Positions 1 to 63,808 of a stretch of 64,000 nucleotides of DNA are shown here, piece by piece. This DNA is from Mytilus edulis (Eukaryota). Location of the stretch: contig NC_092344.1 in NCBI RefSeq assembly GCF_963676685.1, forward strand, positions 88,412,001 to 88,476,000, in the 5' to 3' direction. The first letter of the stretch is position 1; each line of letters opens with the position of its first letter. The notes beneath the pieces are model-generated. The model saw only the letters and a list, made by a program, of their open reading frames with translations. It ran no database searches and was not told where the DNA came from. The translations under genes and the position numbers were made by a program.

Positions 1-219
1 CGTACTGTCTATTTTAATTCGTAAACCGAGTTATTGTTTTGTTTTTTTCTGACATGACATTGATTGTATCGTTTGCACAGTACAGTGTATTTATAATAGC
101 TTCTCCTCTTGAATCTCTGAATTATGATTTGATAAAATGTTAGTATGAACCGAATAATTAGTTTATTTGAACTATTTTGAGGAATGCCTTCAGCAAATCA
201 CAGACTTTCTACATTTGAT

Positions 220-392
220 ACCAGGCATAGATAACCTTAGCCGCACAACTTGTTTTAATGTGGGTCATCAATGCTCTTTAACTTTGTATTTTTTTGGATT
301 TCTTACTATTCTGAGCGTCAATGATTAGTTTTATGTAGATAAAACGCGCGTCTGACGTATTAGATTATAAACCTGGTACCTTTGATAACTAG
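220..392 (+). mobile_element. Partial retrozyme-like copy with decayed hammerhead (313-359)
   Basis: GAGCGTCAaTGATtAGTtTTATGTAGAtaAAACGCGCGTCTGACGT followed by CCTGGTACCTTTGATAACTA; reverse complement of part of 50183-50542. Confidence 0.75.
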
Positions 393-9480: not shown

Positions 9481-11023
9481 TATGACTAAACAATGAACGA
9501 ATAAATTTGATCTGCGATATCTGAATACAAATGCACAGTTAATTAAATATTAGAGACAAACATTCATGACCAAAAAGCTAACAAACAAATTCAAACACAG
9601 GACATGACTGAGAAATATTTAACCAATCAATGTTCACTTTAGAAAAAAAAACCGTTTTTTTTATAATCTTGAAGTTTATACAAATGTTGTAAGAATAGGT
9701 GAAAAATTGAAGATATTACAAATAATGAAAGCTGGTGTACAGACAAGATCCATATAAATAGAAAATAACAAAAAAGGATTATAAACAGTATCAACAGTTC
9801 TTTTGTCATCGTATCAAGGCTGGTGTTGTCTGATAATTGTCAAGAAGTTCAGTGTCGAGACATTTGTTGATTAAGCTAGTTGTATTTCTCAGACTTGCAT
9901 GCTAAATTTTTTTTCATTGTACAGAAATTTAATTTTTGGAATATAAAACACCGGACAAAACTTTTGTCATTGCATAATCGAAAATTCAATGTCTGACTTT
10001 TCAGTTGATAAAAAAAAAAAAGAGGAACAAATTTCACCTGCTTATGAAAACATATGATTATCTGTATGTTTAACATGGGAATGGCTCAAAATTTAATGTC
10101 AACTTTACAGTTTTTCAAGCAATTTTCAATTTTATTATAAATGATGTTTTCAAGAATGATATCTATTTAGCACCTGAAAATATTATCAATACATTTAGAC
10201 TTTTAACAACTTCTCCTTTGTGTTTTTCATTAGCACACAAAGTGTGTGTTTTTTTATGCACTTTTTTTTTAAACTAAAATAGTATTAAACACATTGATGT
10301 CACGGTGAACGGGGGTGATAAACTTACTGGCACTTTTATGCCATTTAGGTTTGTGAGTGAGCAACTTAGACAAGTCAACACGAGGACAACCTCTAAAAAA
10401 CTGTAACCTTTACATTTCCCAAACACAAAAAAGTTCAATTTTTTATAAATATTTTTCTTAATGGCAAATCCACATTTGACATGTCGTAAACTATAGGATT
10501 CAAAATTGACTTGCTGAAATCTATATTTCTATATATTATTATGGAACCATGTATTATCTGGAAAGTTAGGTCCGTCAAATTTTACGGAGTTCCATTTTAA
10601 ATTCTTTATCGTAACTCTACGAAAGTGAAAGAAACAGCAATACGTCAAAACTTTTTAAAATAAGAACGGGATCACTATGGCGATAATTATATATATAGTC
10701 ATAACCGTGATCATAGTTGAAGGCTGCTCTCTTGTTGTTAATTGCTTACATCCACTTCATTTGAACTTTAGTTGTTAGTTGTCTCATTTTCAATCAAACC
10801 ACACTTCTTTTTATTTTTATAGTTTATTAGATGATACCTTGTTTTATATTTAATCTTAATTCACTTTATCTAAAAACAGAGTAAGTACATTTGAAAAGAC
10901 AAAACTCACCTCACCTCACCTATTCTCTTCATGCCGGTCGGCAATTAAAGGCCCTAAAAGACAAAACTATATTTATTAAAATATACATGTTTGGACCGCT
11001 ATGGTCGTTCTAACCGTTATTAT

Positions 11024-11313
11024 CACGCTGAAAGACGATAGTTTGACGCTGAAGTACGACTATTTGATGCTGAATTACGATTGTTTGACGCTGATCTACT
11101 ATTGTGTGACGCTTGAATAAGTGTTTGACGCTTAAGGACCATTGTGTGACGCTGAAGTAAGATTATTTGACGATAAAATACGATTGTATTATGCTGGTGT
11201 ACTGTTGTGTGATGCTTAAGTAAGAGTGGTTGACGCTAAAGGACGGTTGGTTGACGCTGAAGTACGGTTGTTTGACACTGAAATATGATTGTGTAACGCG
11301 GAAGTACGATTGT
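11024..11313. repeat. 21-bp minisatellite (~13-14 copies)
   Basis: Consensus TTTGACGCTGAAGTACGATTG repeated in tandem with divergence. Confidence 0.85.
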
Positions 11314-11683
11314 AATGCCATCTTATTAAACAACGATGTATTATAATATTTTCAATATTTTCTATGTTCCCTTGTCGCTGAAGAAGTATTTTTTAAACTT
11401 AATTAATCTTCGTCAGTTTGCAGGAGAATGAAATAGGAACATCTAGCATCAATCAGTAAACTTTTAATCAGATACATGTAAGTACCATGCGATTCAAAAA
11501 TATACTTCATATGGCGGTTCGAGAACACAATTTTAAGAAGACTTTGCAATTTTCAAACTATGAACTTGGTTCGCTGAGGTGACAACTACCTTTCCCACTC
11601 AACTGAGTCATTCTTCCGGAGTTCTAGCCTTTATCGTGGCATTTATAATGGTTACTTCCATATTTGGTATTTAATCGATGTAC

Positions 11684-19009: not shown

Positions 19010-21920
19010 CTAACATGTCATACTGTGGTTGATCTTTGTTTTCTTAGTCTGTATGGTCTATTGGTGTTTGATCTTTTTTTCTTAGTTTAACATCATTTCC
19101 AATTAATGTTTGATCTATGGTATGTAAGTCTTAAAAGTCCTATTGATGTGTTATCTTCGTTGTCTTAGTATATATGTCATATTGATGTTTGGTCTATGGT
19201 ACCTCAGTCTTAAATGTCCTACTGACATATGGTCTTCTTTCAAAGGGTTCGGATTGCTTATTCTTTAGTTTTCTATGTTGTGTCATGTGTACTATTGTTT
19301 ATCTGTTTATCTTTTTCATTTAAGCCATTGCGTTTGCAGTTTATTTTCGATTTATGAGTTTGACTGTCCCTCTGGTATCTTTCGTACCTCTCTTATAAGT
19401 CTATATTGATGTTCGATCTTCGTTGTCTTATTCTTTATTTCCTTTTGATGTTTGGTCTATGGTCTCTAAGTCTAATATGTCCTATTGGTGTTTTGTCTAT
19501 GGTATTTTAATCTTAAATGTCCTATTGGTGTTTGATCTTACTGTTGTCTGAGTCTTACATGTCATATTAATGTTTGATCTATGGTGTCTTAGTCTTTCAT
19601 TTTATATAGATGTTTGATCTTTGATGTTGCCGTCTTACATTGCCTACCCATGCTCGATAATTTTGTCTCATTTTTCTCATTGGTATTTGATCTTTCTTTT
19701 CGCGGTCTTAACTTTTTTATTGATGTTTTCACTTAGTTGTTTTGGTTTAAATTATCTATCGATATTTGATCTTTGTTATTTTGGACTTACATGTTCTGTT
19801 GATGCTTGATCTTTGTTAACCCGGTCTCAAATTACCCTTTGATGTTTTAACTTAGTTGTTGTTTTCTTGCACTTCATATTAATTTTTGATATATGTTGTC
19901 TTGTCTTGCATGTCCTATTAGTGTTTCATCGTTGTTCTCGCGGTCTTACATGCTCTAATGATGTTTGATCTTTGATGTCTATGTCTTACATTGCCTATAT
20001 ATTAGTAGATGATTAATCTTTGTTGTTTTGTTGTTTTGTTTTACATATTCTATTAATGTTTTAACTTAGTTGTTGTTGTCTTTGTTGTTGTTGCTGTCTT
20101 ACGTTGCTTGTAAATGTTTAACTTTATTATTTTTCGAACTTACCTTGATATTTGATAATATTTATACATCGATCCAAAATGTCATATTAATGTTTGCTTT
20201 TTGTTGTCTCTGTTTTTGATCTTGATCTTTCTCGTATACATGATTGATCTTTGTTTCTTCAGTCTTACGCGCCACATTGCTGTATGCTACTTCTTGTTTT
20301 AGTCTTACACGTCTAATCAATGATTGATCTTTGTTATCTCAATCCTACTGATGTTTTATCTGTGTTGTCTTAGTCTGCTTGCCTATTGATGTTTGATCTT
20401 TGTTGTTGTGGTCTAAATGTCCTACTATTATGATTGTACTTTGTTGTTGTGGTCTTTCATATCTTATTGATGATTGATCGTGGTTCTTGTGGTCTTTCAG
20501 TAATGTACTGTCTCCGTGTTACATGTATTATCAATGTTGGAAGTATTTAATTTATTATAAATATTAAATGTCAAATTAATATTTGATCATGATTGCATTT
20601 CATGCCTGCATGTTCAGTTTTGTTTTCTCAGTCTAACGTGTGTTATTGATGTTTGATTTTTGTTGTCTTAGTTTTTCGTGACCTTTTTATTATGTTTTAT
20701 CTTTGTTGCCCTTTTCCTTTGTCTAGCATATCTTTTGTGTTGTCGTCTTACATAACCTATCAATGTCTTGTATTTCCAATTGATATGTAGTCATTGTTGT
20801 CTTAGTATAACATCTCCGAATAATGTTTGATCTTTGTGGTTGCGATCTTCAATGCCACATCAATGTTTCATTTGTGTTGTATCGGTCTTGTAATAGCAAC
20901 TGATTTTTTTTTATCTTTGATGCCATAGTTTTTGCATGTCTTATCATTGTTTGATATTTAGTGTTCTTGTCTTTCATGTCATATTATAATTTGATCTTTA
21001 TTGTTGTGGTCCTAATTGTGTTTGATCCTTTTTGTTGAGGTCTTAATTCTCATATAAATCTGATTGATCTTTTTTGTCTGAATCTTACATGTTGCCTTAG
21101 TCTAACATGTTCTCTTGATTTTTGATATTTGTTGGCTCGATCTAAAACTATCAAATAGATGTTTGATCTATGTTGTCTTAGTTTAACAAGTCCTGTTTAT
21201 GTTTGGTGTTAGTTTTTGTAGTCTTACATGTCCTTTTTATGTCTGATCATTATATTCATATTCGTACATGTCCTGTTTACGTTTGAAATGTTTTCATAGG
21301 TCTGCATGTCCTGTTTATGTATGATTTTTGTTTTTATAGTCTAACATGGCTAGTTTATGTTTGATCTATGCTTTCATAGTCTTGCATTTTCTATTGATTC
21401 TTGATATTTGTTGATTCGATCTGACATTATCCTATGTATGCGTGATCTCTGATGTTTTAGTCTTATATGTCTATTGATGTTTTGGTATTAATACATGTCG
21501 TTTTGATGGTTTTTCTCTCCTTTCTTAGTAATACATGTCCTATAGATGTTTGATCTTTGTTTCGGTCCTACATAGCAAATCGAAGCTCGATATTTGGTTT
21601 GTCGGTTTTACATGCCCTATTGGTATATTGTTGTATTAGTCTTACATGCTCTACTGGCGTTTGACCTTTGTTGTCCAAGTCTTATAGCAGCACTAATCTT
21701 TGTTGTATCAGTCTTCAAACTGATGTTAAGACTTTGTTCGTCTAAAATAAGATATTCAGTTGTTGTTCGATACCTGTTTTGTATTTCAAGAAATATTTCA
21801 TAACTATCCGATCTTCGTTTTTTTCAACAATGCAAGATGTCATCGATTTCTAATTATGTTGCCTCGGTCTTGTAATTAACTATTTTAAACGTTTGATCTT
21901 TGTTGTATTGAGCTCGCAAT
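19010..21920. repeat. Degenerate 40-bp minisatellite array, left part
   Basis: Consensus ~TATTGATGTTTGATCTTTGTTGTCTTAGTCTTACATGTCC; for example CCTATTGGTG recurs at 19481 and 19521. Confidence 0.85.
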
Positions 21921-35400: not shown

Positions 35401-38400
35401 TTCAAACCTCAGTTTAGTGTATCTTGTTGAATGTTTTTTTTACTTCTGTTTTTGCTCTCCGATTAATTGTTTCAGATTGTCCCTATCATCTCTTTCTACT
35501 TTTCATACATGCTGCTTGGGGTCCTAAACATCTAGCTTGGAAGGCTGCACCAAAACATGAGTGTTTCAAAAAGTATCTATTTGTTATATAGACTTTTTAT
35601 TCAAGAATATCTCTATAAAGAAGTACACACTGAGGCACTCATACTTATTCTTGGCAATTTCATTTCTTGAGACTAGTCTAGTTATTGTGGGTTGAATGAG
35701 CTATTGTTTTCTTGTATTATTTGGATCAAGCCTTTTCATCAAATATTTTTGTTAAGATTTATACTCAATATGTTTCACAACAAAAACCACCCCGAGTCAA
35801 ACAAGAAAATGCATAGGAAACTATGGCATTGTTTATTCACCCTCTGTTTCGGACTTTTCATCGCCATTTCCCTAAATCCGTTTTCATTGAAATATAACTT
35901 TATTGTATATAAATACAACATGTACCAGAATTGTAGTTATTTGTTATTTCCTGTAACCTGGGAAAGGTTTAAAACTTTGGTGAAGTTTTTACTACAATAA
36001 TTTTATTTATCTATATATACCGTTACCGTTCAAATAAAATATTGTTTGGAATATGCAAGAAACGAAAGAAGAAAAAAACGGAAGAAAAACAATAAGGTCT
36101 TTCCTTTGTAGAGGAAAGACCTTAATAAAGAAAACCAACGAAAGCATGCAGTACAGATTATGGGAGGTATAGAGTGTTCCTGAATTTTATCTTTGGTTGG
36201 CAATCTGATGGGATAATGCACGTATCCATATAATAAAACACTTCCCAATGCAAAGAAAAAAGAAAAGAAGACAAGATGGGTCTTTATCTTTGTCTTCATA
36301 TTTTAGACGAATAAAATATAACATTTTCCGATAAAAGTTTTTTTCTGTTCTTCTTCCCTCTAAAATGTTAAGTGTACTTTGCGAGAATCACAGACAGCTT
36401 GAAGTCTACAGTAACCCCTGCAGAGAGAAAAACAATTCCTTATTGACACCCATGGTGTTAATACCCCCTACGAGCTTTATGCATAATATATTGATGTAAT
36501 ATAACGATTGAGTTGATTGACTGACGAAATTGTTCTACCTGTATTGTAAAACCTTGAACAATATATTACATAGGGGAAACATTAAGATGAGCGAAAAATT
36601 GACTTTAATTACGAGTAAAAATTATTTATGCATATTTTTTTGGTTTAAAAAAGACAACCTACGGTTTTTAAAAAGTATTTTTCTTTATTGTCCATGTAAT
36701 AACCCAAATACAATTTAAAAAGGCCTAGGTCGACCCTCAATTTAAATGTTATCGAAAGTCAACATTGAAACACATTGAATGATGTATTGTTAAAGTTTAC
36801 TATGCGGAAACTATTCATAAGATGTTGTTTGTGAAGACCGGTTATAGATGTAGGACGTTTATATTGAGCATTGATATGAGCAATCAGGTCTTCGATCGAC
36901 TAACCTTGATTAATCATCCAAAATCAATTGGTCAATCCTCGAGTGAGGGGGTTGAAAATCATCGTTCCTGATTTCTTGAGGATTAAAAATAAGAAGTATG
37001 TGGGGGATAACACGCACCTGATTATTGTGCAGTTTGTATATGTTATGTTTGTTATATTACAGCTAACAATTACTCAGCACGTCTGTTCCATTATTGTGCA
37101 TATGTTTTGATCCTTCCCCAATTAACTGTACTTCCGACTGCACAGCATGGGTCAGTTCATCTTGGAAGCTGGATATTTTGCATTGTCAATTTTACGCTTT
37201 GACAAACGAATTGTCAATCATGATAGGAAATAGAATAACCATGAATAAGCGCAAATAGTTTGATTTTTAAATTTAATGCTTTTCCCTAATACTGTAATAC
37301 ATGCAAATCTTACATTTACCAATCGAAATGCAATAGGCTCTTTCTTTATTAACTGATTGTGAATTTCTGCCAAAAAATAAATCTTTGTCATTCTGCACTG
37401 AAAAATTTCGTATCGTGTAAACGAAGGTCCCATGGGCAGTTATAGAAGTACTTTGTCTTTAAATATTGCAATCTTTTCACATATTTTTAAAAGTTCTGAA
37501 GCAAAAATGCGCATAACATGCATTTTTCTTAAGGAAGTAAAATATGGTATATCGAAAAGGTAATCATGATTACCAGCCACGAGAGAAAACAAGTTAGCTT
37601 GTATACTTGTATCCCAGACTTATAAACATACACTTAGAATAATATTGATAAGAGCTTATACTGTGAATTGACTTTGTGGTGTAAACTTGTTCCTTAATTC
37701 TACCGATATTTGTTTTGTCGATTTTCATTTCTACAGTTTTTGTAAACATACACGACACCCCTTTTTAAAATTTACTTCCAAATAAATATGTACTTTATTT
37801 TATGTAATTAAATCGATTCTATAAATAATAAACATATTTACTTATTACGTTTCTTAAAGAAGATCACAGATTACAGATTAAGGTCAATAAATTGTGTCAA
37901 ATTCAATTTTTAAATTAACTAGGATATTAGTGAATGAATAGAAATGAAGGACTTCCTGATTGAAAGAATCATTGACTTATTTGGGCACATCCTTATTTGC
38001 ATAAGTCACAGATAGTAAAGGGTGACAAGGGTAGTTTTGTATATGTCAGAAGAATATTTATGAATGGATTTGATGTTATCGTCAAACTTGTATAATGTAC
38101 AATATTAAGTTATATTTTCGTCAATAAAAATACATACAAATAGATATTTATATAAAAAACAGACTATTTTATAAAGGTAAACAGAAGCGATTATTAAAAA
38201 CTAAGTCGTTAGATAATTTGTTTAATGACCTACATTTTGATTGTATGGCCTTTATTTGGAGGAAAAAGTTGTGTTATTACTACTTTTACTGATAACATAT
38301 TTCTTTGATTAGAAAAAAGTAAAACGTAAACGCTTAAAAAAAAAAGAAGTAAAATCACAACAATACTGAACTTAGGGGTAAATCAAATCGGAAAGTCTCT

Positions 38401-38767
38401 AATCACATGGCAAAATCAAATGACAAAACACATCAAAAACTAGACTAAAAGCTGACTGAGAGATAAGAAAAATCAGGGTTTTTGATGATTCTGATGTCAA
38501 CGTATATATGACATGGCATCACTTAATGGACAGAACACATACTTTTGGAAAGAAAGGACATAGATATATGGTATCTTAAGCGTAATAAAGTATTTATTGA
38601 CCTCAGATCTGTGGAAAGGACAAGATGTTAGGCTTGATATGTATTTGACTCTTACAATAGAAATTAGTTAAAGTTTAGTATTATACTTTGAAAGAACTTT
38701 GCAAAACATAAACATTGATAAAAATCATATACCAGCAGTGCAAATTAACAGAACAAGACAATTTATA

Positions 38768-41274: not shown

Positions 41275-41555
41275 GTAAAAGAGGGACAAAAGATACCAAA
41301 GGGACAGTCAAACGCAAAGACCGAAAATAAACTCACAACGTCATTGCCAAAAAAGAAAACGACAGACAGACAACTTATAGTACACAAGACACAACATAGT
41401 ATACTAAAGAATAAGCAACACGAACCCCACCAAAAACTGTGGTTGATCTCAGGTGCTCTGGAAGGGTAAGAAGATTCTGCTCCATATGTGGCACCCAACG
41501 CGTTGCTTATGTTATTACAAATCCCGTAAATATTATAATTCGGTAAGTTACGTTA
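41275..41555 (-). mobile_element. Retroelement 3' tail repeat (family 4, probably Penelope-like)
   Basis: AAAGAGGGACAAAAGATACC...CACGAACCCCACCAAAAACT...CTCAGGTGCTCTGGAAGGGTAAG. Homologues at 19243-19395 (+), 44175-44365 (+), 51138-51345 (-) and 56030-56300 (+). Confidence 0.65.
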
Positions 41556-43047: not shown

Positions 43048-43440
43048 AAATAAATTCATCATAGATACCAGGATTCAAATTTTATGTTTGCGCCAGACGC
43101 GAGTTTCGTCTAACAAAAAATGTTAAAAGGCCAAATAAAGTACGAAGTTGAAGAGCATTGAGGACCAAATATTTCCGAAATGTTTTTCCAAATACCTCTA
43201 AGGAATTCTATTCCTTAGGTAGAAAAGCCTTAGTATATCAAAAATTCAAAGTTTCGTAAACAATTTATTTATAACCATGAACATATCAATGATAACTCGA
43301 GTCAACACAGAAGTGCTGACTACTAGGCTGGTGGTACCCTCGAGTAACTTAAACTCCACCAGCAGTGGTATTGACCCAGCGGTTGTAAATAAACTCATCA
43401 TAGATACAAGAATTCAAATTTTATATTTGAGCCAGACACA
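43048..43440 (-). mobile_element. Retrozyme-like copy, one monomer plus ~50-nt terminal repeat, hammerhead 5' half deleted
   Basis: AAATAAA(T/C)TCATCATAGATAC...GCCAGAC occurs at 43048 and 43387 (period 339). Retains GCCAGACGCGAGTTTCGTCTA but lacks the CTCATCAG part; body aligns with 50183-50542. Confidence 0.75.
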
Positions 43441-46420: not shown

Positions 46421-48027
46421 TGCCCATATTGGATTTCTATTTAACATTATCTGTTTGTTATACTAATATTTTTTCTTTCCTATTGTAATTCGTTTTGGTT
46501 GTTTCTCCATACCGATATAATGCACATTAGCTGTTTCAGATTAAAGATATTTATAGTTATTCATAATGAGTTAAGTCTTTTATCTTAACTTCAGTACTCT
46601 GTGTTGAGTTAACATCAATATTTTTATTGATGGAATATGTTAGTTGTTTGTGTATTCTTTACTAAAGTATACCCTACGTCTACTTGTAAAATCCCTGAAT
46701 TATTGAATATTTGATTTTTTGTGTCATTGCAAATGTAAGATTAACATATTATGAACATAATAGATAAATCATCGAATTTACATTAAATTTTATCGTAAAC
46801 TGCATGATTTTTTTTTAAATATGTCAAAATGACATTAACTAGATAGCAGTGTAAACTGCATTCGCTTAAAAGGAATGTATGGTTAAGTTTAAAAACTATA
46901 CATCTTCCTTGGGTTTTTTTTCCCGAAGATAATCACGTGTTTAGACAAAAGGTAAGTATAATCCATTCATGGTTGATCTTCGTAGTATGATTGACTGCTG
47001 TTTATTTAACGTTTACTACCAAATCATCAGCCATTAGTTAATTGTTATGACATCACAAGTCGCGTTTAAATATTCGATGCTTCATTTTATCACTTCAATT
47101 ACTAAGTATTAGTTTCAAATCTTGCAATCAATGTCTATTTCCAAGAATGTTTAAGAGCCGATTTTAATACCAAATATAGATGTAGTTCATTGTAACAATT
47201 TGCCTTGTATTCACCATAACCATTGATAACAACAGCTATCAAACTGATTTATTACAACGTGCATGCTACATGACAATCCGAAAGACAAATATAACTGATC
47301 ACTTGACTCAATAAATTGTTCTATAATTAGTTAATTAAAGCCATCCTCCACAGATATCGAACGGCGACAATTTTTTTGTCTAGTAGTGGTATGTACAAAC
47401 TAGCAGTTTCTGGTAAATACGACACAACTAAGGTCTTCTGACTGCAACTGTTGGTCATAAATATTAAATCAAATGATAGAATTTTTAATATCAATGATTT
47501 TAACATTTGTATAACACGTAAACTAAACGGTCAATAAATAGAGATCCTTGTATTTCTCTATTATTATTTATATGTGAACGTTGGCATACAATTAACAGTA
47601 ATTAATTGAAGAAATATTTATATAAACACTGACTTGAATTAATGTAAAAATTTTCAAAGCCAAATTTTCAAATATCATCGATGATATTCTTTTAGTTTTC
47701 ATTCAAGTATCCCGGAGTGCTCCCCAATATATCTTGTGTTGGCGTTGTGGATTTTTTTTAATTCTTGTTAAAATAATTGAAGTTAATTGATACTCGAGAC
47801 TTAATAAAAACGTCATTAGATCGCTTTAAAGGCCACGTTGAATTGATTTTGATTCATTATGTACATTTATAATTGTTCAATTGTAAAGAATTAAACAAGT
47901 AGAAATCAATCAACAGTATTTGGTCCTAATTATTTACTAAAAATAAACAAAACTAATCGAAATATGTATTCACAGACAAAATTATATGAAATACCATGAT
48001 ACCATATGTGTTATATATGTTATTTAT

Positions 48028-48250
48028 TAACTGTTTACAAAACTTTTAATTTTTGAAAAACTAAGGCCTTTTCCACCCTAGGAATAGATTACTAAGTCAG
48101 TATTTTTGTGATTTTACTTTTTACATTAGCTGTATTTGGCAAAACATTTAGGAATTTTCATTCTAGCGTTACTGATGAGTCTTCTGTAGACAAAACGCGC
48201 GTCTGGCGCAAATATAAAATTTTAGGATAATCTATGATGAGTTTATTTAT
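48028..48250 (+). mobile_element. Partial retrozyme-like copy with hammerhead at 48165-48209 (G12>A)
   Basis: AGCGTTA-CTGATGA-GTCT tctgt AGAC-aAAA-CGCGCG-TC-TGGCGC. Confidence 0.75.
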
Positions 48251-49769: not shown

Positions 49770-50176
49770 ATTTTTACATTTAAGACTGTAACTATTTTTC
49801 ATTTTTTTTTATCTTTGTATCTCTGTCCTATATTTTATCCCATTTATTTGTATTTAATCCTATCATGTAATGTTGTCATTTTAATGTTATATTCAACATT
49901 GCCATTAAAGCGGTAGGTTTGGCATGCCACAAAACCAGGTTCAACCAACCATTTTCCTTCTTAAAATGTTCTGCACCTAGTCAGGAAAATGGCCTTTGTT
50001 ATATTATAGTTCGTTTCTGTGTGTGTTACATTTTACTGTTGTGTTTCTGTTTTGTCGTAGTTTTCCTTTTATATTTGATGCGTTTCCCTCAGTTTTAGTT
50101 TGTAACACGGATTTGGTTTTTTTTCTCAATCGATTTATGAATTTCGAACAGCGGTATACTAATGTTGCCTTTATTT
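49770..50176 (+). mobile_element. SINE-like interspersed repeat family 3
   Basis: AAAACCAGGTTCAACCAACCATTTT...AGTCAGGAAAATGGC...GAACAGCGGTATACTAATGTTGCCTTTATT. Inverse copies at 57565-57845 and 49458-49555; fragment at 57058-57098. Confidence 0.7.
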
Positions 50177-50182
50177 GTATCT

Positions 50183-50542
50183 AATAGTTATCAAAGGTAC
50201 CAGGATTATAATTTAGGACGCCGACGCGCGTTTCGTCTACATAAGACTCATCAGTGACGCTCAAATCGAAATATTGATAAAGCCAAACATGTACAAAGTT
50301 GAAGAGCATTGAGGATCCAATATTCCAAAAAGTTGTGCCAAATACGGCTAAGGTAATCTATGCCTGGAATAAGAAAATCCTTAGTTTTTCGAAAAATTCA
50401 AAGTTTTGTAAACAGGAAATTTATAAAAATGACCACATTATTGATATTCATGTCAACACCGAAATGTTGACTACTGGGCTGGTGATACCCTCGGGGACGA
50501 AACGTCCACCAGCAGTGGCATGGACCCAGTGGTTTAAATAGT
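50183..50542 (-). mobile_element. Full-length ~354-nt hammerhead-carrying retrozyme-like monomer
   Basis: Homologous to five other copies in the window. Bounded by a 6-nt terminal redundancy (AATAGT at 50183 and 50537, period 354); non-coding; contains a type I hammerhead. Confidence 0.8.
50217..50262 (-). ncRNA. Type I hammerhead ribozyme (intact core, minimal palindromic stem III)
   Basis: Minus strand reads GAGCGTCA-CTGATGA-GTCT tatgt AGAC-GAAA-C GCGC G-TC-GGCGTC: CUGAUGA and GAAA boxes, 4-bp stem II, GUC cleavage triplet. One U is missing from stem I relative to sibling copies. Confidence 0.85.
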
Positions 50543-50956: not shown

Positions 50957-51904
50957 AATTTGGTACTCTTTGCCATATCTGCATACTGTTAACATATTCA
51001 TTGTATTATACAATCAGCGCAAAGTCTTATGTCATCACATTTATGAGAATTGTAATGGATTTTGATGGTTGTGTTGCATAAAATCTAGAATTCAGAAAAT
51101 ATTCAAAAGATGGTTATAACTTTTATTCGAGGTTTAAAACAGAGGCAAAAGATACCAAAGTTACAATATGACAATTCTCAAGTAATGCTATGGCAAAAAC
51201 AAATGACAAAAAGACAAACAACAGTACACAAAACATAACATAGAAAACCACAGACTAAACAACACAAACCCCAACAAAAACTGGGGGTGAACTCAGGGGC
51301 TTCTGACAGATAAGAAGATACTGCTAAACATGTGGCACCCGTCTGTTAGCCCATCTTTAAATATTACCTCCGATAAAGTGAGTTCTGATAAATAGTTCTT
51401 ACAAGATAAATACCATAATCGATATCTTAGACCTATAGGTACCAGGATATGTAATTTTATTATGTGTACTGCAAATTTATTTTTGGACATACATTCAAGC
51501 TATTTGTTTTATGACGATTATTCTTGGAACTCGTAATTCATTTTTTATACCTTTTATGGAATTTAAACACTGATATCAGGCAAGCTTATACCAAAAGTAT
51601 TTACATCACGTAACAATGCCGCATATATTTTGATTGGTCACGTTGTATCATTTCTTAGAATAGTTCGTTCTTATCTAAATAAGGGAACCTTGAAATATTT
51701 ATCTTATTATATGGTTTATGTGTAATACTACCAAACTTAGTACGTCTCACCCGGTTTCTTATTAAAATGGGACCAAAAAAGTCCCTAAAAATTACGTTCT
51801 TTTAAAATAAACCTAGCATTTCATTCCAAAAAATATATATATTTTTGATGTTTGAAAAACTATTTAGCCTTCTTTTATGTGGTGATCTGGTTATTCAGGC
51901 TTGT

Positions 51905-52110
51905 TTTCGAAAAACTAAGGATTTTTCTTATCCAAGGAATAGATTAACTTAGCTGTATTTGACACACAATTTTGGTTCCTCAATGCTCTTCAACTTTGTA
52001 CTTGTTTGGTTTTATCGCTATTATGATCTTAGCGTCACTGATGAGTCTTATGTAGACAAAACAAGCGTCTGGCTTATTAGATTATAATCCTGGTACCTTT
52101 GATAACCATT
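51905..52110 (+). mobile_element. Partial retrozyme-like copy with decayed hammerhead at 52031-52075
   Basis: AGCGTCA-CTGATGA-GTCT tatgt AGAC-aAAA-CaaGCG-TC-TGGC followed by ATCCTGGTACCTTTGATAAC. Confidence 0.75.
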
Positions 52111-52254
52111 GTAAAAATGCGTGAAAAGTTGTTTTGACTGTTGAATGTTATTTCCTATACGCAATGAAATGTTGTGTGAAATTTTCACTGTTGTACTGGA
52201 CAAGATGAAACTTGATAAATGCCAAGTAATATTTGAAACAAAGGTAAAAAAAGA

Positions 52255-52455
52255 ATAAAAAAAAACTCCGAGGAAAATTCAAAACAGAAAGTTCCTAATC
52301 AAATGGAAAAACCAAAAGCTCAAACACATCAAACGAATTGATAACAACTGTCATTTACCTTACATGGTACAGACAGTTTCGTATGTAGAAAATTGTGGAT
52401 TGATCTTGATTTTGAAGCTAGCTAAACCTCTCACTTGTATGACAGCCGCATCCAA
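52255..52455 (-). mobile_element. SINE-like family 2 copy
   Basis: Aligns with 63165-63363. Confidence 0.7.
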
Positions 52456-54326
52456 TTCAAATTCTTTGCAAAGTATAATATATCAGTTCTATGAATAATA
52501 ATAGGGACAAAAAATGATGGTATCACCCCTAAAACACAATGTTTACTGGCACGTTGAATATGGAGAAGAAAGAATTGATAAAGATAGAGTTTTCTGAAAT
52601 TCTGGAAATAGCGATAACCGTTAGATAGGGAGCGCTGAACTAATGTAGAAAATAATGATCAGAATGAAAGCTCACGTGTGTATCCTATGTTTTCGGCTAG
52701 ATTTAATTGGGATACCTTGTTTGAACTCAAACTTTAACTTATATCTAGGACGTCATTTGGATTATCGATGACTCCATTTGTTTTTGTATTACTAGTAATT
52801 GAAGTTGCGTTCAAGATAAGTCTGATGATTGATAAATTCTTTAAAAGTCGCTTCTTATCTTGAAGAATATTCTTATTTTCTTATAGCCTTATTGTTTAAG
52901 TAATTAGGTGTCTCATAAACTGCTTAACATATGACAAGTTTAACAACGTTAATTGAAGAGTCTATTTTTTTGTCATCAATTGAAAAAAAGCGAATATTGA
53001 CAGAGTTATTCTGTATTGGTAGAGTTAACACTTATACTGCATAAGCAGATTTCATCATATTAATTCTAAAAACAGAGTAGATATTAATAATATCATACAT
53101 TATCTGACATAATAACACAAAAGTGCTAAAGACTGATTATAACTTTTTTATATTTTACATTTATTATATCTTGTTTATATTTGAATAAAAGTAGATGAGT
53201 GGGAAATATAAATTAGCCTACATAGAAATTAACTATAGACGTTATTTTAAGGTCACAATACGGCTTTCCAAAATGGAAAGCACAGGAAAAGTAAGATTCA
53301 AACAAGCTGTAAATAGATACAACGTAAGTGCTTGTCAAATATCTCACACCAACACCATTACTAAATAAATTTATATCATTAAATCTATACAAACCAGGCA
53401 CTGTTTGACGCAAATACTGACGAAAGTCTTATGTCTGTATTTTCTTCAAAATTGAGAGTCATACAAAAGTATCATCAAAAGATTGCATGAAAATTAAAAT
53501 CATCAATGTGGAAAATCTATTTAATAAAATTTATGGAACATATAGACAAGAAGAGGAAGCAACAGTACCACACCTCAAGGTATATATATAAAAAAAAGAT
53601 AAAAACAATAACGGCAATTAACCGATATTTTTTAACTTTCTTATCTAGGTATTGGGTCTTTTTTGGAAATAAGCGTTGTTGTGATGGATAGTAGTGATAT
53701 TTAGGCAAATAAGATCTGCATTCATGTGATTGAAGAACAGATTTCCACTGAGAAGAAAATCGGACATATAGCAATAGTTAATAAGATGACCATTGATACG
53801 TAACGAGATTACTGTTTTGTTGTGCCTAGAAATACTGATTACCACGAATACATTGTAGAAGATACACAGTGTTTACAGTCTTGCAATTACATTGCAGAGT
53901 CATTGCAATATAATTTGGTATTCAAAATTTTTGTATGATGTATGTGTTTAAAAGTCACACATATTCTTTTCTATTTCAACTCAATTTTGACATATAAGTT
54001 GAAATACATGAAAATCAGTTTGATAGGTCAATATAAATGGGATGCTGATTTTGTAGGCCTGATAGACGCCTGGTTTGAACTAATGTTATGTTGCCTTCTG
54101 AAGTCCCGAATGTTCAGTTGAAATAGAAGTTCTTGTAATCATTTTGTATTATTGGAAGAACAATTCACTAATTTATGAAATAACAAACTTGGTTGTATGC
54201 ATTGCTTACAACACAATACTCTTTGTGGAACTCTATTAGTGTTTTTTTACTGGTCTCGTTGTACACATCTGTCGAACGATTTCATCCTTATGTTAAGTTG
54301 TGTCAAGGAATGAGTATTGTATCTTA

Positions 54327-54768
54327 GAATCACATTCAAAACAGTGTAGCTGTGGCCATTGATTGACAACCTTAAATTATCCCATTGAATGGGGTAGATC
54401 AGGTGAACGTGTGTCTGTAACGACAACTGCTCACTACTTACTTATTATAGAATTTAAACTGTGGGGTCACCAAAGGTTCTTAACGCCTTTAATATTAAAA
54501 TAGTTCGAAAAATTAATCAGGAATAACTTTATGTTTTGATTTATATTATTGATATAAATCAAAACATCGCGTTGTTCCTGATTAGTTTTTCTAATTTCTT
54601 TATTTAGGTGTTGAGAACCTTTTGTGACCCCACAGTTTAAGTGCCTTTAACAAGTACATAGTGAGCAGCGGTTGTTACAGACAAACGTTCACCTTATCTG
54701 CCCAAGTCAATGGGATAATTTAAGGTTGTCAATCAATGGCCACAGCTACACTGTTTTGAATATGATTC
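54327..54768. mobile_element. Foldback MITE, near-complete ~440-bp palindrome with TA TSD
   Basis: TA|GAATCACATTCAAAACAGTGTAGCTGTGGCCATTGATTGACAACCTTAAATTATCCCATTGA... is mirrored at the other end ...TGATTC|TA; symmetry centre near 54547. Confidence 0.85.
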
Positions 54769-55107
54769 TATTAGTGAACTCTATTGAGAGATTCAACTGT
54801 GTCGGCATATTGAAAGTGAATGAAATTTTTTATTCTTAAGAATATATATTTATATCTATAGGCGTTCTTTTGATAGTAAGAAGTAATTAGATACAATTGA
54901 CCTCATATTGTTCCTTCGCTTCTTATTTTGCCTTTTATTTATCAGAAATTGAATATTTTGTTAAAATAATAGAAAAAAAGTCTTTCAGTATGGTATTTAT
55001 TAAAACACGATGAAAGATATATTCTTTTATCATATGTTTAGTAGTAAATACAGTAGTTTTGCATATGTGATAAATAGCCTGCTGTTTAATCCATATCGCG
55101 CAACTTT

Positions 55108-55741: not shown

Positions 55742-57102
55742 GTAACCTCTGCATATTGAACAATTGACAGTCTTATTAAATAAAACTTCGAAACTCTTAT
55801 GCTTAAAATAAAATTGACTGTTTCGTCTGGTCTTTTATTACCGAAATATTTCACATTTTGTACCGAGTAGAATACAAAAACAACCCTGCTTATATTTGCC
55901 ACATGTATATTTTATATCTTTTCTAAATTTGAAAATGCCTGTACCAAGTCAGTAATATGACAGTTGTTGTCCATTCTTTTGATGTGTTTTATCATTTGAT
56001 TTTGCCATTTGATTAGGAACTTTCTTATTTTGCAGATGACGACGGATATTTTCCAATTTTTGTAACAACAATTCCGTTCTCTTTTCCTCGAATGTTATAC
56101 CACTGAATGAGACTTGTCCCATTCTGGAGCACCTGGGATCTATCGTGATTTTAATTGGGTTTCTTCTGCCTAGTTTTTAGTTTTTAGCCTTCTAATTGAC
56201 CTTTACCTTTTTCTATTTAACTGTTTGTATATGAATCATTTTTTACAACGGCGTTGTCAGTTTGTTATGAATTTGAATAACCAACGCCTCTCTTTTACAT
56301 GACAAAATATTAATATATAATACTTGCAACTGCAAAAATCAAAATCAACGGACAAATACTGCTCAGATAAACGAACTTATTTCGTTTGTAACCTCATAAA
56401 ATTACAGATCATCGGACTGAAACCCCGGTTAACCGAATGGCGCTCCTGGCATTACGATAACAGTGAAAACAACCACAACGGTGTAAATAAAGGTATGCAT
56501 GAAAACCAGAAGAACACCAAAGCAAACAAAAAATACATTATAAAAAGCTATTCTTCAATGTTTATTATGCGTGTATCATATCCTTAAATTTTAACGAATA
56601 AAAGAAAATGAGATGTTGACGAGCATTTTTTTTTTCAAATTAAAAAATAACCAATATATATATAGTAATCACCATATCGTCTTTTCCATATATAAACCCT
56701 ATACTATTTCAATGAGTATTCATTTAGTTAATGTGGTAGACACTAATTCCCTTAAGCCAAATGAACTCTTAAATTTAACTTTAAGACAATCCCTGATAGG
56801 GTTATTGACTTCAGACAGGCACATAAACATGTGGCTGACTAATTTAGTTTTTAATCTCTCAGTTTTAAATTTAAATCAGTAGCATCAAATAGGTTTAAAA
56901 ATTAGTTGAGAAAAGCCCGTAACTTTCAGAAAATATCCAGCTGCAGGTAAATCATAACCGTAACTCAACAGTGGTTATCCTATGTCATGTATGAAAAAAA
57001 TCGTTACTTGGAAAATTTAGCTTTATAGACAATTTTTTTAAGAAATGAAATAACACGTTATGAACTTCGAACAGCGGTATACTACTGTTGCCTTATCTAT
57101 TT

Positions 57103-57175: not shown

Positions 57176-57564
57176 TAAATTGTATTCACAAATTTTAGGT
57201 GATTTAGAGTCATGTAAAAAAGTAACACACAGACACGTGTGTTTAGTTGAACATTGTATGTTGACCTCTATATTTGTATATTTGTTATTTATGATGTTAG
57301 GTTGCTTTCTCATTTACGTATACCAAGAACATCATTTTAATCAGATGTATAGCATTGTATTAGAGAATGCCCACCGGTATTGAAAGCAAGTTTGAAATGG
57401 TTGATATAGAAATTGTACCGTCATACACTTTTCGATCGGACGCTTTATCTTTGAATTGCTTTTATAAAGGGGTGTCGTCCTAAATAGTTCAGGAAGACAA
57501 GCTTGTGTGCAAGGCATATAAAGAATATGTAAAATTGCAAATCAGAACAATAATAGAAAAAAAA

Positions 57565-57845
57565 TACAACAGTAGTATACCGCTATTCAAAAGTCATAAA
57601 TCGATTGAGATAGAACAAACCAAAACAGAGGGAAACACATGACATATAAGAGGAAAACAACGGAACAACAGAAACACGGAAGTGCAAAAAAAAAAACAAC
57701 AACAAAAAAAACAACAACATAGAAACGAACTTTTTGATAACAACTGCCATATTCCTGATTTGGTACAGAAAGTCTTTAGAAAAACGGTGGATTGAACCTG
57801 GTTTTATGGCTATCCAAACCTTCCGCTTTATGTCAATGGTGAAAA
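57565..57845 (-). mobile_element. SINE-like family 3 copy
   Basis: Reverse complement of ~49895-50170. Confidence 0.65.
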
Positions 57846-63154: not shown

Positions 63155-63363
63155 GAAAAAAGTTAAATCACACAAAATATTGAACTCCAAGGAAAATTAT
63201 AAACGGAAAGTCACTAATCAAATGGCAAAATCAAAAGCTCAAACACATCAAACGAATTGATAACAACTGTCATATTCCAGAGTTGGTACAGGCATTTTCT
63301 TATGTAGAAAATGGTGGATTAAGCCTGCTTTTATCGCTAGCTAAACCTCGCACTTGTATGACA
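63155..63363 (-). mobile_element. SINE-like interspersed repeat family 2
   Basis: AACGGAAAGTCACTAATCAAATGGCAAAATCAAAAGCTCAAACACATCAAACGAATTGATAACAACTGTC...; near-identical to 52255-52455. Fragments at 7965-8045, 38345-38440 and 55930-56030. Confidence 0.7.
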
Positions 63364-63579
63364 AAAATACCGAAACGACGAAAATATACTATAACAACTA
63401 GGTCAAAACTAAATATATAAATATACTAAAATATCAACCGCAGGTACAAATTTGGTTGTTTATAAAGTCATCATCGTCGTTGTCCCCGTTTTCTAATTAG
63501 TTAAATAAAAAAATATTCCTCTGTATTTGATAATGGATTTACACCATCAGTAACTTATTAATTTACTGTAAACAAAACA

Positions 63580-63808
63580 TTGAGTTTTTAAAATACTATT
63601 AAAGGGTTTTCAATCTAATGAATAGATTACCTAAACTGTATTTGGCAAACCATTTAGGAATTTCCGGTCCTCGCTCTTCAACTTCGTACTTTATTTGGCT
63701 TTTTTAACTTTTTTTATTCGAGCGTCACTGATTAGTCTTTTGTAGAAGAAACGCGCGTCTGGTGCAAATACGAAATTTCAATCCTGGTATATATGATGAG
63801 TTTATTTA
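63580..63808 (+). mobile_element. Partial retrozyme-like copy with decayed hammerhead at 63720-63766
   Basis: GAGCGTCA-CTGATtA-GTCT tttgt AGAa-GAAA-CGCGCG-TC-TGGTGC followed by ATCCTGGTATATATGATGAGTTTATTTA. Confidence 0.75.

Follow-up and report, generated by a model that had tools for sequence, protein, structure and literature searches.

A covarying stem-loop beside the fixed insertion end of mussel retrozymes is shared with Naiad elements, their candidate helpers

Introduction

The window that we analysed, 64,000 nucleotides of contig NC_092344.1 of Mytilus edulis, contains a 354-nt non-coding unit that carries a hammerhead ribozyme on its minus strand and has the letters AATAGT at both ends. 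A first-pass annotation read it as one exact monomer of a hammerhead retrozyme-like element, permuted as a copy of a circular or tandem RNA would be. With no ORF of at least 120 amino acids in the unit, the locus raises the question of which enzyme wrote this copy into the chromosome, and from what RNA. A Penelope-like origin of retrozymes has been proposed (PMC7229834) and argued for frogs (bioRxiv 10.64898/2026.07.22.740005), while a 2020 review, in its accessible text, states that retrozyme repeats lack any conserved motif from which a helper could be recognised (PMC7761336).

Results

The insertion is a damaged copy of an abundant retrozyme family

The insertion and its parts are located in the window as follows.

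50183..50542, minus strand: retrozyme insertion, consisting of a complete 354-nt lap and the initial 6 nt of the next one
50183..50188, minus strand: fixed 3′ end of the family (RNA terminus ...ACUAUU)
50218..50260, minus strand: type I hammerhead (stem I 5′ strand 50260-50255, core 50254-50248, cut after 50223)
50452..50471, minus strand: UUCG-capped hairpin, adjoining the 61-nt stem-loop
50471..50531, minus strand: 61-nt bulged stem-loop, common to three retrozyme and three Naiad families
50537..50542, minus strand: second AATAGT, family sequence, the start of the second lap, where copying stopped

The AATAGT motifs (50183-50188 and 50537-50542, spaced 354 nt apart) and the hammerhead core both lie where the first-pass annotation had placed them, and the second AATAGT reads as family sequence rather than as target-derived. 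Along the minus strand, CUGAUGA (50254-50248) is followed by a 4-bp stem II, GAAA, ACGCGCGU and a GUC that ends at 50223. The annotation called this core intact, which is right for the core letters but not for stem I, whose 3′ strand lacks its first base, a U. It had itself seen that sibling copies have this U. Among 276 core matches, which come from fetched loci with overlapping loci counted twice, the bases after the intact core are UG in 259 and GG in only one, the 50183..50542 copy; the U is also present in 924/1299, 1106/1512 and 520/753 reads of three RNA runs. Its absence is private to this copy. The suggested Rfam search with Hammerhead_1 gave a split answer: three siblings score 33 bits against that model (RF00163; cut-off 34, E 5e-5), and the 50183..50542 copy matches Hammerhead_3 best, at 26.7 bits. 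The annotation also proposed a minimal stem III that can require dimers for cleavage. This is doubtful, as stem III has two pairs (AC/GU) capped by a GCGC tetraloop, siblings align across the whole RF00163 model with a stem III that is neither absent nor single-pair, and a cloned mussel monomer self-cleaved at about 0.1 per min (PMC7229834).

This copy has a further private change at 50522, inside the stem-loop, where it breaks the first pair of the conserved stem; the common base is present in 184 of 188 matches. With a single hammerhead, and that one damaged, the copy is probably dead as a source. It is otherwise ordinary, with 98% identity to its closest siblings. Folding of the whole unit does not surpass that of shuffles (z -0.40), and even for an intact sibling the predicted minimum fold does not include the hammerhead. 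We considered and rejected a second hammerhead on the plus strand (50479-50506): it has neither A6 nor the G-C base of stem II, its sequence is not kept by families 2 and 3, and it is the reverse of the stem-loop. Judged by this sequence variation, the opposite strand appears to have no conserved hammerhead of the kind expected of a viroid-like RNA with ribozymes on both strands. The right junction of the insertion is continuous in contigs from two other DNA runs and is therefore no assembly artefact; no empty allele of the site was found among the joints listed in four DNA runs.

The family is very abundant. In the 1.37 Gb genome (14 large contigs), 9167 matches were counted for an exact 26-mer of the unit and 3453 for an 18-mer taken from a younger variant–more than 12,000 together–as against none for control sequences, so the repeat is not a chance find. 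Family units are 355 nt long and form tandem arrays of up to eight units, in line with the tandem genomic copies that the first-pass reading anticipated. That reading also took the class to be already reported from Mytilus, and the published description agrees: the M. galloprovincialis retrozyme consists of 350-390 bp repeats that contain a type I hammerhead, is present in thousands of copies (about 5000 hammerheads), and has two ribozyme families, tandem arrays and hammerhead-strand RNA that is mostly circular (PMC7229834). The repeat is thus of a class already known, and is likely to be the published Mytilus non-LTR retrozyme itself, although its identity with the published clones is inferred.

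We recognised further families. Family 3 has a 350-nt unit with another hammerhead, and its core pattern, which is common to a 550-nt family, has 4816 genome matches. That fourth tandem family of about 550 nt (L269-L272, L274) has the family 3 hammerhead core, but the single unit inspected lacks such a stem-loop; a different helper may serve this family.

Insertions have a fixed 3′ end and a ragged 5′ end

We examined the boundaries of 103 insertions taken in chromosome order, after dropping duplicates and one gap-ended array and with two loci unaligned. Selected by their end motif, 99 of the 103 begin within 9 nt of one fixed base. The result held with an anchor placed 330 nt away: among 28 distinct arrays, 22 began within 5 nt of that base (of the rest, one lies at +7, four elsewhere and one is unresolved), as compared to about 3% expected from random permutation. 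The opposite (5′) end is spread over the whole unit, giving insert lengths from 18 to 1741 nt. Of 99 insertions, three end at roughly one lap, give or take about 10 nt, and a near-exact monomer such as that at 50183..50542 is therefore an ordinary outcome. Nor are its AATAGT ends a special permuted structure, as was first supposed: family copies begin at AATAGT whatever their flank, and the ends reflect neither target duplication nor random permutation. A fixed 3′ end combined with a ragged 5′ end, on the hammerhead strand, is the pattern of target-primed reverse transcription. A slight excess of ragged ends at the ribozyme cut (5/99 in a 5-nt bin, as against at most 4 elsewhere) was not convincing.

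The target site shows a short match to the element. In the flank, positions -1 to -12 agree with the circle no more often than chance predicts, and positions 1 and 2 match it at 84% and 92%. Of 23 paralogous empty sites, we dropped one self-hit and one hit to a retrozyme; 15 of the remaining 21 continue with AA (background 13%) and six start without it. The right flank of the 50183..50542 insertion also starts with AA. At the ragged junction AA is not enriched (49/103, background 41%), and there is therefore no regular 2-nt target duplication; empty-site offsets are a few bases either way, again without regular duplication. The insertions thus show the fixed internal 3′ start, ragged 5′ end and partial tandems of Penelope-like elements. 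Their usual inverted 5′ copies and optional 30-40 nt tails are not part of the picture: an inverted copy at the ragged end is rare (2/103), and the 28 arrays show no cluster of second starts at 30-40 nt.

Rolling-circle DNA transposons also yield one fixed end and tandem arrays. Spread at the DNA level–by a Helitron-like element, by a tyrosine recombinase acting at AATAGT, or as a permuted monomer with a 6-bp target duplication–could in this way account for those features and for the direct repeat at the two ends of the 50183..50542 copy. We consider such spread scarcely credible, however, since the second end is ragged over the whole unit, with no regular duplication, and AATAGT is element sequence in nearly all copies. 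Two results described below also count against it: the G-U pairs and paired changes of the stem-loop favour an RNA of the hammerhead strand, and the partner signal sits in reverse-transcriptase elements.

The fixed end tracks a covarying stem-loop, not the ribozyme

Families 2 and 3 have the same fixed end as family 1; in family 3, for example, 16 of 16 terminal copies (one internal unit being left out) stop within 3 nt of it. The distance from the fixed end to the ribozyme cut site differs among families 1, 2 and 3 (41, about 47 and 33 nt, and 40 nt in the 50183..50542 copy as against 41 in intact siblings), whereas a 61-nt segment always lies 4-6 nt from the fixed end in all three. The end therefore tracks this segment and not the ribozyme. 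When the 50183..50542 unit is read as a circle, the segment begins 5 nt past the fixed end. The first-pass annotation had missed the fixed end, the segment and the change at 50522 within it.

The segment is the best conserved part of the unit: it is 89-92% identical between retrozyme families, as compared to 63-76% for other sequence and 52% for shuffled sequence. In three retrozyme and three Naiad families it folds to one nested bulged stem-loop, which is the predicted minimum in all six. An alignment of eight rows has 18 pairs, with 100% of cells paired and 7 pairs changed on both sides; slid controls are 33-49% paired and 0 of 500 shuffles reach that covariation, although these shuffle counts are not probabilities because the rows represent a few related families. 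Adding Naiad A and the 50183..50542 copy, the outer 13 pairs are 99.2% paired with 7 double changes, and adding four metagenome loci leaves 98.8% paired. The unpaired parts are also strongly conserved in sequence. Pairing of the adjoining UUCG hairpin is preserved with different letters in retrozyme family 3; we did not see this hairpin after the stem-loop in Naiads. Two other readings of the segment were rejected. A pseudoknot would need a second helix that has no double-sided changes and that breaks in Naiad C. The segment could also be read as the A/B boxes of a Pol III promoter, an interpretation that we dropped because of T-runs within the unit.

The strong conservation of the unpaired parts and the constant distance to the end would suit an unrecognised self-cleaving ribozyme whose cut, about 5 nt upstream, generates the fixed 3′ end. 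We regard this as very improbable, because hundreds of RNA reads and all arrays continue across the site, read ends show no accumulation among the ends listed, the leader letters vary, and Rfam has no match over the stem-loop.

In metagenome contigs, 14 of 120 pattern matches keep both outer helices, and all of these are AT-rich; the other matches were taken as chance as a group rather than individually, and 40 of the 120 have no guaranteed flank. Of the passing loci, three are located at Naiad-like ORFs, and in several the segment comes after a different hammerhead core. At five metagenome loci (L357, L367, L369, L446 and L463), retrozyme-like units have the same stem-loop downstream of differing hammerhead cores, which suggests that several ribozymes can be combined with this module.

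The same stem-loop precedes the ORF of three Naiad families

We searched the genome for GIY-YIG proteins and looked more closely at 20 loci. At one of them (L233, Naiad A) the stem-loop segment lies just before the start of a 1017-aa ORF, whose product has an N-terminal GIY-YIG domain, CX9CxxC, a CxC before GPKF, DKA and a C-terminal YIDD. The marks given in the accessible text of Craig et al. 2021 (PMC8557442) include an N-terminal GIY-YIG, a lengthened CX-CxxC finger, CxC ahead of GxKF/Y, DKA and a C-terminal RT; L233, L337 and L343 all have these motifs, which class them as probable Naiads, and like published Naiads the candidate helpers combine these motifs with partial tandems, 5′ truncation and the lack of a hammerhead. 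The stem-loop is in the same place in 5/5 full copies of Naiad B and 6/6 of Naiad C that were fetched, a count that leaves out three loci broken at the 5′ end. In all three families it sits between a T-rich fixed 3′ end and the AUG: at tandem junctions a T-rich run is followed about 5 nt later by the stem-loop segment. The T-rich fixed 3′ point was found within the fetched DNA at 15 of 25 Naiad A loci (three of which share one flank), at 6/6 for Naiad C and at 3/5 for Naiad B. Since retrozymes end about 5 nt before a segment that also follows Naiad ends, a Naiad enzyme is likely to copy retrozyme RNAs.

Naiad C has the stem-loop closest to that of retrozymes (85-87% identity) and, among the 150 of 3793 Naiad-like candidates that were scored, dozens of near-identical open ORFs; no Naiad stem-loop compared is identical to the retrozyme one. 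We found no hammerhead core on either strand in one copy each of Naiad A, B and C. A decayed hammerhead, in the 3′ UTR, is the only one in Naiad B. There, 5/5 copies (L337-L341) contain, 600-1150 nt after the stop codon, a family 1 unit that is decayed to about 69% and has the same orientation, a ruined hammerhead and no stem-loop; it would be either the remnant of a retrozyme captured long ago or the sequence from which the retrozyme body derives. A 29-nt piece of the retrozyme fixed end likewise occurs inside the Naiad A 3′ UTR (L312-L336), being present in 11 of 25 Naiad A loci, one of which is a separate array.

Sharing of the stem-loop could instead reflect descent or some other role, as a promoter, translation start or packaging signal, with the helper being a hammerhead-bearing Penelope-like element. 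Such elements are present in the genome, the literature favours them as helpers (PMC7229834; bioRxiv 10.64898/2026.07.22.740005), and the position of the stem-loop directly before the Naiad AUG would suit a role in translation. We nevertheless think this quite unlikely. ORF-less retrozymes keep the stem-loop best of all their sequence, and insert ends track it in retrozymes and Naiads alike. When the 20 GIY-YIG loci were compared with families 1 and 2, only two Naiad A copies had the stem-loop at their own start, and 30 shorter GIY-YIG loci compared with family 2 contained only stray retrozyme inserts.

Other copies of both element types lie in the window:

218..391, plus strand: older truncated family copy
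43058..43440, minus strand: decayed retrozyme family 2 copy, more than one unit long
48020..48208, plus strand: older family copy with an internal deletion
50048..50176, plus strand: Naiad B-type 3′ end (84% identity), tail to tail with the retrozyme, 6 nt apart
51904..52110, plus strand: older 5′-truncated family copy with the same fixed end
63555..63797, plus strand: older truncated family copy
19253-19394, 38344-38440, 41277-41418, 52240-52392, 55919-56024, 57558-57670 and 63157-63311: Naiad A/B/C 3′ ends

Naiad families A, B and C contribute, through their 3′ ends, many of the common repeats in the window. The Naiad B-type flank of the insertion is probably an older independent insertion; the facing Naiad B and retrozyme 3′ ends (50048-50183) may alternatively come from priming on both strands at one site. 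The window also contains a 332-aa open frame matching cytochrome P450 (30021-31016, minus strand; PF00067, E 8e-12), degenerate tandem arrays of 40-nt units at 19026-21684 (with a strong plus-strand T bias) and of 21-nt units at 11004-11332, and a MITE-like sequence at 54325-54770 with 126-nt inverted arms that are 90% complementary, 194 nt apart, and an inner 51-nt hairpin.

Tandem copies are transcribed on the hammerhead strand

We mapped reads from three raw RNA runs, whose organism label differs from that of the best-matching DNA runs. The region attracts 5915, 6847 and 3216 reads, counts that apply to the family as a whole. The two stranded runs place about 80-85% of first mates on the plus strand across most of the unit; under the usual library convention this denotes hammerhead-strand RNA, as expected from the first-pass reading. 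Cover on that strand is even along the unit. Reads that span the unit junction number 531, 609 and 116 in the three runs; 924, 1106 and 520 reads contain the U and pass across the cut site. Tandem copies are therefore transcribed on the hammerhead strand, at the family level. Expression of the 50183..50542 copy itself is not indicated, given the different organism label and the fact that only 226 of 5915 reads in one run are at least 99% like it; its right flank has no RNA reads.

These reads fit circles and uncut multimers alike, since short reads cannot separate the two, and this leaves some room for a template that is an uncut linear read-through of a tandem array, copied by the same helper from the same start signal, with circles a side road. 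A lizard element offers a precedent, as its main substrate is uncut RNA and ribozyme mutants left insertion unchanged (PMC11167929), and Naiads without a hammerhead still start at the same signal. We judge a linear template unlikely all the same. The hammerhead is retained, in differing forms, in every retrozyme family seen, and the mussel RNA is mainly circular on northern blots (PMC7229834). Moreover, in 8 of 8 multi-unit arrays examined one private set of variants is repeated in every unit, with a mean unit distance of 7.0 within arrays and 11.7 between them. Such array-wide variants are expected if one monomer is copied repeatedly, although local duplication would equally give them, and an 8-unit array also shows some later local duplication.

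Discussion

We think it probable that a Naiad reverse transcriptase-endonuclease wrote the 50183..50542 copy by recognising the stem-loop on a probably circular RNA and starting about 5 nt upstream of it. Tandem copies would be transcribed on the hammerhead strand, and hammerheads would then release unit-length RNA for a host ligase to circularise, as published for the mussel family and as we suppose here. The Naiad protein would bind the stem-loop and nick genomic DNA; the nicked end, usually at AA, would pair with UU at the start site and prime cDNA synthesis. Running round its template and dropping off at varied points, the enzyme would leave one fixed and one ragged end. In the 50183..50542 copy, synthesis would have ceased 6 nt into lap two.

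A broader reading, towards which we lean slightly, is that mussel retrozymes are circular-RNA parasites of ribozyme-less Naiads, with the stem-loop setting, like a ruler, the position of a telomerase-related reverse transcriptase 5 nt upstream. As this signal is situated past the end of what is copied, an RNA must be circular or tandem to carry it. In SINE-LINE pairs, a short non-coding element shares its helper's recognition structure and is copied by target priming. The mussel pair would differ from these in that the signal is downstream of the start and carried only by circular or tandem RNA, with no tail and no regular duplication.

The nearest biochemical parallel is the Anolis element Poseidon, which starts inside its RNA, downstream of a hammerhead, at AT-rich targets, and whose purified Penelope-like protein needs RNA 3′ of this internal start (PMC11167929). 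Poseidon belongs to another clade, is autonomous, and has two start sites and a tail, unlike the mussel retrozyme with its one site; its start is also not homologous to the target (PMC11167929), whereas here 2 nt (AA) usually match. Naiads typically have inverted copies and tails, which mussel retrozymes rarely show, and the accessible text describing them mentions neither an RNA stem-loop at the pLTR-ORF junction nor dependent retrozymes (PMC8557442). For the mussel retrozyme, the main text of PMC7229834 contains no fixed insertion end, start site or helper-derived motif, and Penelope-like helpers are only suggested there. Vertebrate retrozymes have likewise been tied to Penelope-like terminal repeats by Li et al. 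(bioRxiv 10.64898/2026.07.22.740005), through overall likeness to frog terminal repeats; in its accessible text that study ascribes arrays to local amplification and has no mollusc samples, end mapping or Naiad partner. A literature search outside subscription journals and supplements found no work linking Naiads to retrozymes by a shared RNA element.

The results bear on two open points, the helper of animal retrozymes and the RNA signal for Penelope-like internal starts. Both become directly testable in vitro through a stem-loop that is small, covaries, keeps a constant distance to the insertion end and occurs with intact Naiad ORFs as well. The candidate helper it indicates belongs to a ribozyme-less clade, whereas the literature had leaned to ribozyme-bearing ones. 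If the parasite reading is true, the position of the signal would explain both the retrozyme's need for a hammerhead and the partial tandems of Naiads, and the same module could direct a Naiad protein to any RNA.
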